A DNA stretch of 64,000 nt. It comes from a virus. The stretch lies in the IMG/VR virus record IMGVR_UViG_3300044846_005100, positions 32,001 to 96,000 of that record. One strand, written 5' to 3'. Position numbers and translations under genes: made by a program. Under the pieces are notes generated by a model, which was not told where the DNA came from, searched no databases, and was given only the letters and a program-made list of their open reading frames with translations. Below, one piece after another: positions 221-32,082 of this stretch; position 1 is the first letter of the stretch; the number at the start of each line of letters is the position of its first letter.

Positions 221-357
221 TAAGCTGAAGAAAGTTAGAAAGGCATATTTATGTTGCATAAAACGGGGATCGAACCCGTGACCTTTTAAACCCAATTTAA
301 ACGCTCAACCAACTGAGCTATTCACGCGAAGTAACCTTTTCTATTACTATCAGCTTA
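221..357 (-). ncRNA. Y-RNA-like scaffold Y1 with a nested complete tRNA-like module (TGG loop)
   Basis: Terminal stem TAAGCTGA/TCAGCTTA; TAGTAA-N9-TTACTTC motif; internal cloverleaf GCGTGAA..TTTATGC. Confidence 0.8.
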
Positions 358-362
358 ATAAG

Positions 363-506
363 TTAAGACGAGAAAACGAATAGAGTTTTGCTGTTATAAG
401 GCAATTTATGAGATTGCTGTCTTTACCACTTGACTAATTCTCCATGCGGGGAATATAGGATTCGAACCTATGTTTACGAAGTACCTCTAATCTTGCTACG
501 TCTTAA
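363..506 (-). ncRNA. Y-RNA-like scaffold Y2 with a circularly permuted tRNA (T-arm, closed acceptor, D-arm, CAT anticodon arm)
   Basis: Stem TTAAGACG/CGTCTTAA; TAGCAA..TACTTC; ATAGGTTCGAATCCTAT precedes the D-arm TAGTCAAGTGGTAAAGAC. Confidence 0.8.
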
Positions 507-552
507 TAATTCAATGAACTTATTTGTTTTTTAAACCCAGTCGATTAGGTTT

Positions 553-760
553 AAAAAAGAGGCCGGCTTACATTCCATCTTCCGGCCTCTTAGGCTTGAT
601 CTTCATGCTAGCATCTGATCAAAGGTAGAGCTTCGCTTCCAAACTCTTCGCTCTCTAAAAAGGCAGCCGTCTCTTATGGGATCGCCAGCAGGATACCTTA
701 AGTCTTATAGTGAACTTAACAAAACTACTATTAGCTCATAGCTGAGGGAATATCTTCCAA
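553..760 (-). ncRNA. Unnamed structured RNA candidate ending in a terminator-like hairpin
   Basis: GC-rich non-coding sequence; AAGAGGCCGG/CCGGCCTCTT stem followed by a T run on the minus strand. Confidence 0.4.
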
Positions 761-764
761 ATGA

Positions 765-903
765 TAAAGGTAAAGAAAGTTTCCAACCGAGATTTTAGCG
801 CTCTATCCAGCTGAGCTAATGAGGATTACTCCCCATGTTGGATTCGAACCAACGACCTCTCGTTTAACAGACGAAGTAACGGTTTAGATTACTATTACCT
901 TTA
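765..903 (-). ncRNA. Y-RNA-like scaffold Y3 with a circularly permuted tRNA-Asn(GTT)-like module
   Basis: Stem TAAAGGTAA/TTACCTTTA; order is anticodon arm (CTGTTAA), T-arm, acceptor closed by GTAA, D-arm. Confidence 0.8.
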
Positions 904-909
904 ATAAGT

Positions 910-1074
910 TAAGATGAAGAATGTTGCAAATAGTGTTGTTTCTTAACGCGCGTCTACCAGTTCCGCCATTCCCCAATGAGTTGTTTGTAATATAGTCGGG
1001 GAAGAAGGATTCGAACCTTCAATGTACGTGCTCCAAATGCATACGAAGTAACTATTCAGCTTGCTATCATCTTA
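910..1074 (-). ncRNA. Y-RNA-like scaffold Y4 with a permuted tRNA module (T-arm, closed acceptor, Leu-type D-arm)
   Basis: Stem TAAGATGA/TCATCTTA; TAGCAA-N9-TTACTTC; GAAGGTTCGAATCCTTC precedes TGGCGGAACTGGTAGACGC. Confidence 0.8.
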
Positions 1075-1082
1075 TAATAAGT

Positions 1083-1213
1083 TTATCAGGAGAAAGTTGC
1101 AAAGGTGTAACGCTTTCGCGCTTCTGCGGGAATTGAACCCGCGGCCTATTTTGTTTAAGAAAATTGCTCAACCGCTGAGCTAAGAAGTAACCTTTTGCAT
1201 TACTACCCGATAA
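1083..1213 (-). ncRNA. Y-RNA-like scaffold Y5 with D, anticodon (TAA) and T arms fused through the acceptor position
   Basis: Stem TTATCGGG/CCTGATAA; CTTCT/AGAAG replaces the acceptor stem. Confidence 0.8.
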
Positions 1214-1242
1214 TTAATTTTTTCAAAGAACTTGTTTACTTT

Positions 1243-1253
1243 ATTATAATACT
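1243..1253 (-). promoter_or_regulatory. AGTATTATAAT promoter-like motif (also at 6574-6584 and 7087-7097)
   Basis: Identical intergenic 11-mer, three times, about 24-34 nt upstream of an RNA or ORF start. Confidence 0.55.
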
Positions 1254-1294
1254 AAGAATCCCTTTACGTTTAAAATTATTCTTAATATTTTTTG

Positions 1295-1368
1295 TAGTCA
1301 AGACAGGAGTCGAACCTGCAATCTCCCCAACATTCTGTCGGGGCGCGTTACCAATTAGCCACCTGACT
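1295..1368 (-). ncRNA. Atypical tRNA-like RNA (AGTCAGG acceptor family) with an extended anticodon arm
   Basis: AGTCAGG/CTTGACT acceptor, GCAGGTTCGACTCCTGT T-arm, 7-bp anticodon stem with 5-nt loop. Confidence 0.7.
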
Positions 1369-1373
1369 ATAAA

Positions 1374-1464
1374 AAGGATTGCTGGGGGAATACTGTCGAG
1401 AGTATGTTTGGTTTGCGTTTCAGATACAAGAAGTAACTCTGTAACTTGCCACCCAGCAATCTTT
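1374..1464 (-). ncRNA. Y-RNA-like scaffold Y6, minimal, with no tRNA module
   Basis: Stem GATTGCTGGG/CCCAGCAATC; TGGCAA-N9-TTACTTC; begins about 10 nt after the Ro60 stop codon. Confidence 0.75.
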
Positions 1465-1473
1465 ATTTTTTAT

Positions 1474-3102
1474 TTAGATCTTGATCTTTCGAACTTTCTC
1501 TAAGTGATAGTTTGGATTGAATTCGCTTTTCGCGATATCATCGAACATTGAGTATCCGTATCCATAGTAGAAACGAACTTTATCTCCTGCAAGTTGAGTC
1601 GTTCCATAAGCTGCTAGATCCACCGAGTAAACGTATGGGCTTCCGCATGCTTTTGTGTATGACTCGTATGCTTTGTAGCTGCTTCCGCGGTTACACTCAT
1701 TGTCAGATAAGATAAACACTCGGTCATACTGACGTCCAGACATTTGAGCTACTGCCCATGCGGCTGAAAGATTGGTTCCTCCCATATCTCTCTTCATTGC
1801 GCTAGCAATAGAGAATACATCAGAGTTAGCGTTCCATTTTACGTATTCAGCACTTGAACCGAATCGAATAACGTCTCCATTTGTTGCCTTTGCAATGGTT
1901 GCTGCAATTAATGCTGCCTTGTCCATGCATCGGCTAGTGTAACGTTTTCCGCTTCTTGCGCCATCAGTCATTGGAGTACCCATTGATCCAGAGAAATCCA
2001 CCATTACTAGAGTCTTACCAGGAAGCATCTCTGAAAGGTTTGGCACTGCTGCTTCATATCCTTTAAGTAATGCTTGTGCAATCGCTCTGGAGTTAGAATC
2101 AGAAAATTCTGAGATCGTTACCTCGTGAGCTAGGTCAATTTGGTATGGCATAATCTTTCCTTTTCGGATTGCGTCTGGACTAGATAGCAGAGCAGTCAAC
2201 TTAGTAACCGTGTCTCCTTTGTTAACTGTCTTCAATACATTTCTAATATTTCGAAGAGCAGCTAGGATTCCCAGTTTACCGTCAGTTAATAGAGCATCCC
2301 AGTTTTCAGCTTTCGCTTCTTTTAAGATTGTCTCGGCTTCGGACTTGTCGATTTTACCCTCTTTCACAGCTTTCGCAACCTCTTGACCTGCGTCAGATTG
2401 TGCTACTTCCCAAGTATCAGCTGAAACGCTTAAGCCTTTCATGATAGCGGAAAGAACTGGCACTTTTTCTCCATTTACTTCGGCTACTGCACTAGAAGCC
2501 TTTGGATTTGGGTGAACCAGGTTGATCACGTCAACTAGAGAGCTCTTGTATTTAAGTAGTGCATAAGCATCTAAGTTTTCAAGAGCATCCGCGAATCCTT
2601 TTTTCATCGCATTGGTTACCTTTGTTCCATTCAGTGCTGAGAAGCAAGCAACGATTTCTGCCATATCATCTGGACGGAATAGAGTTCCTCCGGATTGAGT
2701 ACGTTTGTTCCATAGGGAATAGAAACGTTTTGCCCATTCTTGACCCGCACAGTGTGGAGCTAGGTAGCTTGCTGCAAGGTGGTTAATTGATCTCATTCCT
2801 TCACCAACACATCTCGAATAAACGATTGATTGAGCTACGAAGTATGCATCTTCTTCTGCACACTCATCGACTAGTCCTTTCAACTCCCTCATCGTTTCTG
2901 TCTCAGAACGATAGAATTGATTTTCTAGCTTTAGTGTGTTTAACATCGTCAGGAGACGAAGCCACTTATCTTGTGAATAAGCTGCATGTCCTTGACGATT
3001 CTTAGTGTCTGGTTTTGGGATTTTCACCGCTTCTACCAGGTTCGCTTGAGGCTGCATTCCAGCTAGCGTCGAACGAAGCTTGTCGTTTCTAAACTTTGTC
3101 AT
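1474..3102 (-). CDS. rsr: Ro60/Rsr-like TROVE-domain RNA-binding protein with C-terminal vWA domain
   Basis: 542 aa; TROVE-like motifs (DTWE, ALRNIRN, MPY), vWA MIDAS DFSGSM, GGTN, LSDNE. Confidence 0.9.
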   Translation of the reverse strand: MTKFRNDKLRSTLAGMQPQANLVEAVKIPKPDTKNRQGHAAYSQDKWLRLLTMLNTLKLENQFYRSETETMRELKGLVDECAEEDAYFVAQSIVYSRCVGEGMRSINHLAASYLAPHCAGQEWAKRFYSLWNKRTQSGGTLFRPDDMAEIVACFSALNGTKVTNAMKKGFADALENLDAYALLKYKSSLVDVINLVHPNPKASSAVAEVNGEKVPVLSAIMKGLSVSADTWEVAQSDAGQEVAKAVKEGKIDKSEAETILKEAKAENWDALLTDGKLGILAALRNIRNVLKTVNKGDTVTKLTALLSSPDAIRKGKIMPYQIDLAHEVTISEFSDSNSRAIAQALLKGYEAAVPNLSEMLPGKTLVMVDFSGSMGTPMTDGARSGKRYTSRCMDKAALIAATIAKATNGDVIRFGSSAEYVKWNANSDVFSIASAMKRDMGGTNLSAAWAVAQMSGRQYDRVFILSDNECNRGSSYKAYESYTKACGSPYVYSVDLAAYGTTQLAGDKVRFYYGYGYSMFDDIAKSEFNPNYHLEKVRKIKI

Positions 3103-3196: not shown

Positions 3197-3272
3197 TGGT
3201 GCACCCTACAGGGATCGAACCTGTGACATCTTGCATGTAAAACAAGCGCTCTACCAGCTGAGCTAAAGGTGC
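3197..3272 (-). tRNA. tRNA-Val(TAC), CCA encoded
   Basis: Cloverleaf, anticodon loop TTTACAT. Confidence 0.95.
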
Positions 3273-3339
3273 ATAATAAACTCATTTTTGTTACAATAAA
3301 CAGTATTAGTTTATTGATACAAATTTATGTTTATTGAAT

Positions 3340-3460
3340 TGGTGGGGAAGGGCTTCTTAGGGCCAAATCATTAAATTTACTGTTTAATTGCGATGAAACT
3401 CTTTAATTACTATCATTGCTGAAGAACGGCAAAAGAGCGAATTGTTTTGCATTCTTCCCC
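3340..3460 (-). ncRNA. Inside-out Y-like RNA Y7: acceptor stem plus ACCA enclosing a permuted scaffold motif
   Basis: GGGGAAG/CTTCCCC-ACCA ends; internal CTCTTTTGCCGTTCTTCA-GCAA-TGATAGTAATTAAAGAG. Confidence 0.6.
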
Positions 3461-3465
3461 ATGTG

Positions 3466-3540
3466 TGATCCCGGTGGGGCTCGAACCCACGACTCCCTCA
3501 TTAAAAGTGAGGTGCTCTAAACCAACTGAGCTACGAGATC
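3466..3540 (-). tRNA. tRNA-Lys(TTT)
   Basis: Cloverleaf, loop CTTTTAA. Confidence 0.95.
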
Positions 3541-4333: not shown

Positions 4334-4341
4334 AATAAAAC

Positions 4342-4373
4342 AAAAAAAACCCGAATCGTTTGGACTCGGGTTT
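4342..4373 (-). terminator. Intrinsic terminator (attenuator 1)
   Basis: AAACCCGAGTC/GATTCGGGTTT stem followed by a T run. Confidence 0.8.
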
Positions 4374-4397
4374 CTTTTAGTTTGATATAGTTAAGAT

Positions 4398-4553
4398 TTA
4401 CATCAATTCCCGAGTATTTTTTAAGTGTTGTTTAGGATCAATAATCGTATTTGAGAAGCGCACAACATTAAAATCACAGTTCGTGTTCCAGCTCATCGGC
4501 GAGCTACTTAACGACTGATACGAAGATTTTAATATGTTGTTAATGTTTTTCAT
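4398..4553 (-). CDS. Putative leader peptide 1 (51 aa)
   Basis: MKNINNILKSSYQSLSSSPMSWNTNCDFNVVRFSNTIIDPKQHLKNTRELM; its 3' end carries ACTCGGG, complementary to the terminator 5' arm. Confidence 0.6.
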   Translation of the reverse strand: MKNINNILKSSYQSLSSSPMSWNTNCDFNVVRFSNTIIDPKQHLKNTRELM

Positions 4554-5989: not shown

Positions 5990-6183
5990 AAACAAGTCTT
6001 CCGTGCTCACCACGGGTTTGGATTTGACTGATGGTTTGTTCCCCATCACCTGTTGACGTGCACATCAGAGCAGGGTCCATTACAGGATACCTTGGGGCAT
6101 TCAAACTCTCAGTAAAGGTTGCGATCCTATGAGAGCCAAGGTTTCTTTCATCCGCGCTATTCGGACTTCTGTAAGACTTGTTT
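5990..6183 (-). ncRNA. Large (about 194 nt) multi-stem ncRNA candidate
   Basis: 11-bp closing stem AAACAAGTCTT/AAGACTTGTTT; internal CCTTGG/CCAAGG, CTCTCA/TGAGAG and TGATGG/CCATCA. Confidence 0.6.
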
Positions 6184-31887: not shown

Positions 31888-32082
31888 TTTGATTTGGGTT
31901 TAATTGTTAAAAAAATTTTTTTTGATATATAAAGACAGAAAGTAGAAATACAATCCTGCCATTAAAAATCCTATCCAAGCGTTGATATGGTTAAATACCC
32001 AGATAGAAAAATATCCTACGATAAGGGATAAAAGGGTTAGTGCTAAAAATTTGTTGGTTGTCATTTTTTATAAAATTTTAAG

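Follow-up and report, generated by a model that had tools for sequence, protein, structure and literature searches.

Ro60 proteins of bacteria and phages bind Y RNAs via a stem-loop-stem module, and the bacterial Y RNA YrlA has a tRNA-like domain. RNase P opens the YrlA of Mycobacterium smegmatis, to which a CCA end is added, so that a two-piece RNA results (PMC4201824). The Ro60 protein of the Thermus phage phiLo binds two phage RNAs of ordinary topology, Yrl1 and Yrl2, and recruitment of host PNPase has been shown for it (PMC12135203). A survey of jumbo phages reported TROVE proteins with a tRNA-like partner (PMC7824862). The element analyzed here bears on the role of the tRNA-like domain of bacterial Y RNAs. 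We studied a 64,000-nt stretch of viral DNA (positions 32,001 to 96,000 of the IMG/VR record IMGVR_UViG_3300044846_005100, in the following called the window), which belongs to a 140-kb virus record judged complete. At 3340..3460 on the minus strand it contains a predicted RNA of 121 nt that has tRNA ends and, enclosed by these, a handle of Y-RNA type. With moderate confidence we regard it as the gene of a stable non-coding phage RNA, namely a Y-RNA-type Ro60 partner in tRNA topology. Full-text literature searches yielded no description of a one-piece, tRNA-ended Y-like form. All evidence presented here is computational and comes from metagenomic contigs.

All window features given below lie on the minus strand. 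The acceptor stem of the element consists of 7 bp between GGGGAAG (3454..3460) and CTTCCCC (3344..3350) and is followed by a discriminator A and an encoded CCA (ACCA, 3340..3343), so that the acceptor end of a tRNA is present. Between the acceptor strands we found, in this order, CTCTTT (3432..3437), which forms the 5′ strand of stem 2, CCGTTCT, TCA-GCAA-TGA (3413..3422), which forms stem 1 under a GCAA tetraloop, TAGTAA (3407..3412), AAAGAG (3399..3404), which forms the 3′ strand of stem 2, and TTTCATCGC (3390..3398). TAGTAA is the conserved 5′-side motif of the handle (TAGYAA), and a conserved TTCT (3423-3426) lies within CGTTCT (3423..3428). Two further hairpins follow: hairpin 3 (3371..3387), an anticodon-arm-like structure with a 5-bp stem and the 7-nt loop CAGTAAA, and a mini-hairpin GGC-N8-GCC (3351..3364) at the place of the T arm. 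The original prediction, made without database searches, had described scaffold strands in swapped order that are closed by GCAA, enclosed by the GGGGAAG/CTTCCCC stem with ACCA, and start 5 nt past a tRNA-Lys gene. Every one of these motifs was recovered in its place, the enclosing stem and its tail were confirmed to the base (3460..3340), and the spacer measured 4-5 nt (end of tRNA-Lys at 3465/3466).

The acceptor stem, stem 2, stem 1, and the GGC/GCC hairpin were all present in the minimum free energy fold of the element, the energy of which (−22.8 kcal/mol, z = −1.05) is unremarkable and uninformative. ARAGORN called no tRNA for the element, and Rfam gave nothing above noise on 3273-3464. 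A full cloverleaf, as recognized by ARAGORN or by Rfam RF00005 at a score of at least 29 bits, was not found in the window copy, and the hairpin 3 loop has an A, not a U, at position 33. With neither a T arm nor a D arm, the window copy resembles a tRNA only in its ends and in the anticodon-arm-like hairpin.

The proposed partner of the element is the product of an open reading frame (ORF) at 1474..3102 (542 aa; rsr), which profile matches (Pfam TROVE, E = 3e-7; vWA_Ro60, E = 2e-5, just under the cut-off) identify as a divergent Ro60/TROVE-vWA protein. Six Y-like units, recognized by motif and architecture, are located downstream of this gene at 222..1458, and in these the handle is made by the 5′ and 3′ ends of the RNA. 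In order, they comprise the terminal stem 1, TAGYAA, stem 2, TTACTTC, a cargo, the stem 2 complement, a strand with TTCT at its end, and the strand that closes stem 1. The cargo is a tRNA-like module, complete or permuted, or is missing altogether. One of the units gave a partial Rfam YrlA match (33 bits) over its tRNA-like part only. The element has the same motifs at identical spacings with the halves swapped, and TTTCATCGC is the counterpart of the TTACTTC that comes after stem 2 in all Y-like units. The pattern ATAGYAA-N8/9-TTNCWTC occurred four times in the window (in three Y-like units and the element), compared to 0.05 occurrences expected from shuffles. Two topologies of the handle are present in one genome: in six RNAs the acceptor is closed and the handle open, whereas in one RNA the acceptor is open and CCA-ended and the handle closed. 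One of the Y-like units, at 911-1073, shares the G4A2 core of the element's open acceptor in its own closed acceptor (UGGGGAA with UUCCCCG); the other units do not have this core.

Using the Ro60 protein, 35 viral loci encoding a Ro60 at 37-99% identity were fetched. BLAST of the element against the Ro60 loci gave matches in the closest relatives and in locus L004 only, and further copies were gathered by an exact 16-mer scan and then by a degenerate pattern in which the GNRA loop was required and stem 1 was left free. A covariance model built from six relatives, with the window sequence excluded, was run over 58 loci. It returned 25 distinct members scoring 49-139 bits, compared to at most 35 bits for tRNAs and ordinary Y-like units, and six of the members came from the model alone, having been missed by the patterns. 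The window copy scored 58.9 bits (E ~1e-12 over the whole 140-kb genome) and was the single match there; judged by this model, its resemblance to the family is not due to chance. A search with a permuted covariance model had been proposed together with the original prediction, and its outcome, 25 distinct homologues in uncultured phage contigs, shows that the motif is conserved in relatives. A 35-bit match in L029 was rejected as a family member, because it is made up of a tRNA and the beginning of an ordinary Y-like unit. Pattern scans of bacterial and archaeal genomes gave 69 matches, close to the chance number, and none of them passed the model. The family seems to be confined to uncultured phages. 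When the relatives were searched with Rfam, the best partial tRNA match reached 23.6 bits and a weak permuted-tmRNA match was found across a tandem junction; two relatives with T arms gave no YrlA match.

In the 25-sequence alignment, which was fitted to the covariance model and is therefore biased toward its helices, 89.8% of the cells were paired compared to 69.6% after shuffling, and double changes were found in 28 of 33 pairs. The observed values were matched by none of 500 shuffles, and pairing fell to 43-51% when the 3′ partner was shifted by 1-3 columns. In the case of the acceptor stem, 99.4% of the cells were paired and 5 of 7 pairs covaried. The corresponding values were 98% and 3 of 4 pairs for the stem 2 core, 100% and 3 of 3 pairs for stem 1, 82% and 6 of 6 pairs for hairpin 3, and 100% and 5 of 5 pairs for the T arm. 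Complementarity in stem 1 was not imposed by the search pattern, and this stem occurred as TCG/CGA, CTC/GAG, CTG/CAG, CCG/CGG, and other variants under the loops GCAA, GCGA, GAAA, or GTAA. RNAalifold independently gave the T arm as well as the acceptor stem and stems 1 and 2. It is base pairing and not codons that the substitutions maintain, which argues against the element being a small ORF, that is, a 19-codon frame (3404-3463) that opens with an ATG at 3462 and runs over the 5′ half. An ATG right before G+1 is indeed present in several members, but the frame relative to the conserved core is different in L004, and L039, L100, and L092 have no ATG. Considering these differences and the E-value of the model, the probability that the element is a small ORF or a chance resemblance is practically negligible.

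The members of the family resemble tRNA genes (RF00005) in their 7-bp acceptor stem, discriminator, and CCA as well as in their placement. In 7 of the 25 members a tRNA gene lies 0-13 nt upstream, downstream, or on both sides, and this includes the window copy (4 nt upstream), which is directly preceded by tRNA-Lys(UUU) (3465..3540; ARAGORN and Rfam, 69.5 bits) and followed after 67 nt by tRNA-Val(UAC) (3197..3272; ARAGORN and Rfam). Five members are wedged between two tRNA genes, namely L039 (4 and 2 nt), L093 (9 and 0 nt), L004 (5 and 5 nt), L099 (12 and 1 nt), and L086 (4 and 1 nt). A T at position −1 was found in 19 of 25 members and in 211 of the 287 ARAGORN tRNAs of the same loci, and an encoded CCA in 10 of 25 members and in 48 of these 287 tRNAs. 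A canonical T arm is present in 21 of 25 members, and hairpin 3, which has a 5-6-bp stem in the manner of an anticodon arm, is located 3-6 nt before it, the distance corresponding to a variable region. The hairpin 3 loop is canonical (7 nt, U33, purine at position 37) in about 10 members and has 8-9 nt in others; examples from the relatives are CTGTAAA, CTCATAA, and CTGTCAA. Because of the canonical T arm and the placement and loops of hairpin 3, the 3′ half of the family resembles that of a tRNA, whereas the 5′ half, as read from the aligned sequences, consists of an acceptor strand and, in place of the D arm, a handle domain of ~60 nt. A D-arm-like hairpin was found in L004 only, where the handle comes after it. 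At or just past the handle tail, a GG is found in 20 of the 21 members that have a T loop, whereas all 4 members lacking this loop are devoid of the GG, which hints at a D-loop-like contact, the events being few and partly of common ancestry.

Another explanation would be an intron-containing tRNA gene, from which the handle of ~50-60 nt would be spliced out, with the Y-like units being matured via a circular intermediate, as is the case for algal permuted tRNA genes. Removal of ~46-60 nt in silico led to an ARAGORN tRNA in 20 of 25 relatives (Cys, Asp, Met, Glu, Ser, Tyr, Arg, and His, with some anticodons undetermined). However, exhaustive deletion gave no tRNA for the window copy, its two subfamily members, and the two L092 copies, and dozens of deletion boundaries were accepted per member, so that the ARAGORN calls mostly reflect the 3′ half. 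Furthermore, the supposed tRNAs for eight amino acids have nearly one acceptor stem, unlike real isoacceptor sets, in the Cys, Ser, and His cases the discriminator base does not follow the identity rule of Escherichia coli, and many loops have 8-9 nt. Neither a bulge-helix-bulge motif nor a group I core was seen in the sequence, a search for RtcB found none in the phage genome, and the handle itself is under strong structural selection. In view of these results, we consider splicing improbable.

The window copy forms a subfamily with L086 (Ro60 70% identical) and L099 (Ro60 37% identical), which has in common the 5′ linker, the ACCA tail, and a 3-bp mini-hairpin instead of the T arm. This mini-hairpin reads GGC-N7-GCC in L099 and, with the strands swapped, GCC-GTAA-GGC in L086. 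Since the form lacking the T arm was kept across such a deep divergence, it is maintained and does not represent a decaying copy. In five loci, two or three tRNA-ended elements with different anticodon-like loops are arranged in tandem (L070:593-1013, L095:3659-3940, L100:10304-10584, L092:3315-3597, and L097:2699-4637). The spacers measure ~35 nt in L070, L095, L100, and L092 and are wider in L097; the spacer in L095 contains a small hairpin. Tandem copies are a classical route to circular permutation.

Linkage of the family to Ro60 was observed also when the search did not start from the protein. Contigs found by the RNA pattern alone encoded a Ro60 at 36-70% identity within the fetched locus, and in four of five records checked as a whole a Ro60 was present elsewhere on the record, the fifth being a fragment with an estimated completeness of 39%. 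Taken together, the Ro60 proteins encoded by the contigs from these RNA-pattern scans were 36-99% identical, and every contig of sufficient length carried a Ro60 gene. Element and rsr were always located on the same strand. In the relatives, the distance from rsr to the element is 0.3-2.4 kb where the element is downstream and 0.4-10 kb where it is upstream, and the element often stands between tRNAs. As both the side and the distance vary, a trans-acting partner RNA fits these data, and a cis-acting leader or regulator of rsr is disfavored. In the window, the rsr start codon is located 238 nt downstream of the element on the same strand, as expected for a leader, but tRNA-Val and a promoter-like site (3166-3137) separate the two. 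We therefore consider it very improbable that the element acts on rsr in cis, and the suggestion of the original prediction that the RNA might act on rsr expression did not hold up in this respect.

In the related Ro60 loci (L001-L106) we identified 127 distinct handle elements of ordinary topology, for which TTCT/TTCC at the 3′ side of the handle was demanded by the search descriptor. In 49 of the 127 a T arm is followed by a closed 7-bp acceptor, and the sequences of these acceptors are very diverse. A common ancestry of the open acceptors with the closed acceptors of the ordinary units was considered, and this diversity indicated no general link. In both topologies an A-rich AACA usually stands ahead of the 3′ strand of stem 2.

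The proposal that the element is an RNA with tRNA ends and a Y-type handle inside, in the inverse order of the six Y-like units, is supported by the 25 homologues, the compensatory changes in every proposed helix, the abutting tRNA genes, the T at −1, the encoded CCA, and the T arm in most relatives. As a Ro60 partner, the element would be transcribed as part of the tRNA array. RNase P would cut at G+1, and 3′ trimming would leave the encoded ACCA, whereas in relatives without an encoded CCA this sequence would be added. The 7-bp acceptor helix and the free CCA end could then protect the RNA and provide a tRNA-like terminus. The inner handle would be that of the six Y-like RNAs (stem 2, TAGYAA, TTCT, and the TTWCWTC tail), with the outer stem cut to 3 bp and capped by a GNRA loop, and by analogy with YrlA and the Yrl RNAs of phiLo it is predicted to serve as the docking site for Ro60. 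The remainder of the RNA, comprising the acceptor-CCA end, the variable anticodon-arm-like hairpin, and in most relatives the T arm, would be shown to other factors, and both charging and a tethering function are predicted possibilities.

We tentatively extend this view to a two-headed adaptor, an idea that as a whole we rate as rather doubtful. A genuine tRNA acceptor end, which might be chargeable or be bound by the CCA-adding enzyme or EF-Tu, and a Ro60 handle would be united in one chain, and this chain would bring Ro60, and via Ro60 the host PNPase, to the tRNA-handling machinery; alternatively, the variable anticodon loop might be a bait for host anticodon nucleases. The two circular orders in one genome and the tandem arrays in relatives would then record an origin of Y RNAs from tRNAs by handle insertion and permutation.

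Several results weigh against a Ro60 partner RNA. The known Ro60-site motif GNCGAAN0-1G (CGAA) is absent from the handle, in which the corresponding strand is TGATAGTAAT (family consensus TAGYAA), and Rfam YrlA does not match the element (no match at E-values up to 10). Stem 1 has only 3 bp under the GCAA loop, compared to 8 bp in the Y-like units, and Ro60 binding may differ if Ro60 reads this stem. The window copy is devoid of a T arm and a D arm, and the T arm is a determinant for RNase P and CCA-adding enzymes. No cultured relative was found, and GenBank and cultured phages gave no match to a family member; the nearest GenBank Ro60 (33% identical, from an uncultured 635-kb phage) has no family member at its locus. 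The linkage to Ro60 could partly result from shared phage ancestry, and two complete Ro60-encoding phage genomes do not have the element, which accordingly is an accessory member that is dispensable for Ro60.

Alternatively, the element could be a tRNA mimic or decoy, the handle of which is no Ro60 site but a self-contained fold replacing the D arm or a dock for another phage or host protein. Such an RNA would act via its acceptor end and the variable anticodon-like loop, for example as a bait for tRNA-modifying or tRNA-cleaving enzymes. A handle without the known Ro60 motif (PMC4201824, PMC12135203) and the complete Ro60 phage genomes lacking the element agree with this idea, as do the hairpin 3 loops, which resemble real anticodon loops and vary freely among relatives, and the GG past the handle, which tracks the T loop and suggests a D-loop-like contact. 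On the other hand, the handle is known here from Ro60-encoding phage contigs only, the handles of ordinary topology cluster right beside rsr like YrlA genes, and nothing points to another partner. We regard a mimic or decoy as unlikely, but of the alternatives it deserves the most attention.

Among the described RNAs, a mode of action like that of YrlA (RF02553; Chen et al. 2014, PMC4201824; Wang et al. 2018, bioRxiv 10.1101/312249) is most plausible for the element, though it departs from YrlA in topology, motif, and score. Like YrlA genes, it lies near rsr on the same strand, joins a stem-loop-stem protein handle to tRNA-like parts (T arm, acceptor helix), and belongs to a set of several paralogues per genome. 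YrlA, however, ends in the handle and has a closed acceptor, whereas the element has a tetraloop-closed handle and an open acceptor that bears a discriminator and CCA. In addition, the element has no D arm, the window copy also no T arm, the handle motif is TAGYAA...TTCT instead of the YrlA motif, and the Rfam gathering threshold of 69 bits is not reached. The processed YrlA of M. smegmatis, likewise a Y RNA bound by Ro60, acquires an open 7-bp acceptor helix with a CCA tail, but it consists of two base-paired pieces and the ends of its handle are open, whereas the element is one encoded chain and in the family the CCA is often part of the gene. With phage phiLo the window shares a phage Ro60 gene beside which phage partner RNAs, putative ones in the case of the window, are encoded; binding and PNPase recruitment were shown for phiLo. 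The Yrl RNAs of phiLo differ in having a 5′-3′ stem and a CGAA bulge, and a tRNA-ended form was not reported there. The family shares with other circularly permuted RNA genes the property that the same modules occur in two circular orders within one RNA family. Such genes are known from the two-piece tmRNA and the permuted tRNA genes of Cyanidioschyzon, in which the whole gene is permuted between species or splicing is needed. In contrast, a single phage genome contains both orders here, and the arrangement does not imply that pieces are joined.

With one protein and seven RNAs, the genome makes it testable whether Ro60 reads the handle regardless of the position of the ends, how a free acceptor end affects stability, processing, and partners, and whether the RNA is charged. 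For genome annotation, the family is a warning that Ro60 partner RNAs may be hidden among the long "tRNA-like" genes and "tRNAs with inserts" of phage tRNA arrays, and a covariance model of the family would add an RNA class to phage annotation.

Besides the helices described above, a further helix, termed helix X, can be formed by bases past the acceptor 5′ strand with bases before and within TTCT. In the window these are GAATG (3450..3454, of which G3454 is shared with the acceptor stem) and CGTTC (3424-3428). Helix X covaries between subfamilies and is absent in others, and overall 57% of the cells were paired. Among the 127 ordinary Y-like elements, pairing at the corresponding position was not enriched over shuffled partners, so that helix X is specific to the tRNA-ended form. 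As the CCGTTCT strand can pair just past the acceptor 5′ strand in many members, the handle may be pseudoknotted; helix X would form a pseudoknot with stem 2, and a pseudoknot or a switch is possible. An alternative hairpin (3421-3457), formed by GAAGAAUGCAAAA and UUUUGCCGUUCUUC, extends helix X and is exclusive with the acceptor stem, stem 2, and stem 1; it may represent a switch or a folding intermediate. In most members the conserved GAAGAA, which extends from the acceptor strand into the bases past it, and the conserved TTCTTC are complementary.

The tRNA array of the window contains two other RNA-like features. At 6023-6084, beside tRNA-Ala, a full-length freshwater-1 RNA was found (Rfam RF02979, 86 bits, threshold 72). 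A strong terminator-like hairpin (17 pairs and a T run) is located at 4341-4435 just upstream of tRNA-Thr, and the same interval gave a weak Thr_leader match (33 bits, below threshold). In locus L030, the Ro60 of which is 99% identical, the slot of the element between tRNA-Lys and tRNA-Val is occupied by a different RNA-like cassette of ~80 nt (L030:4684-4764) with a 5-bp terminal stem (GGGUA/UACCC) and an adjoining 4-bp hairpin. The flanks are identical to those of the window, and the exchange looks like a precise cassette swap.
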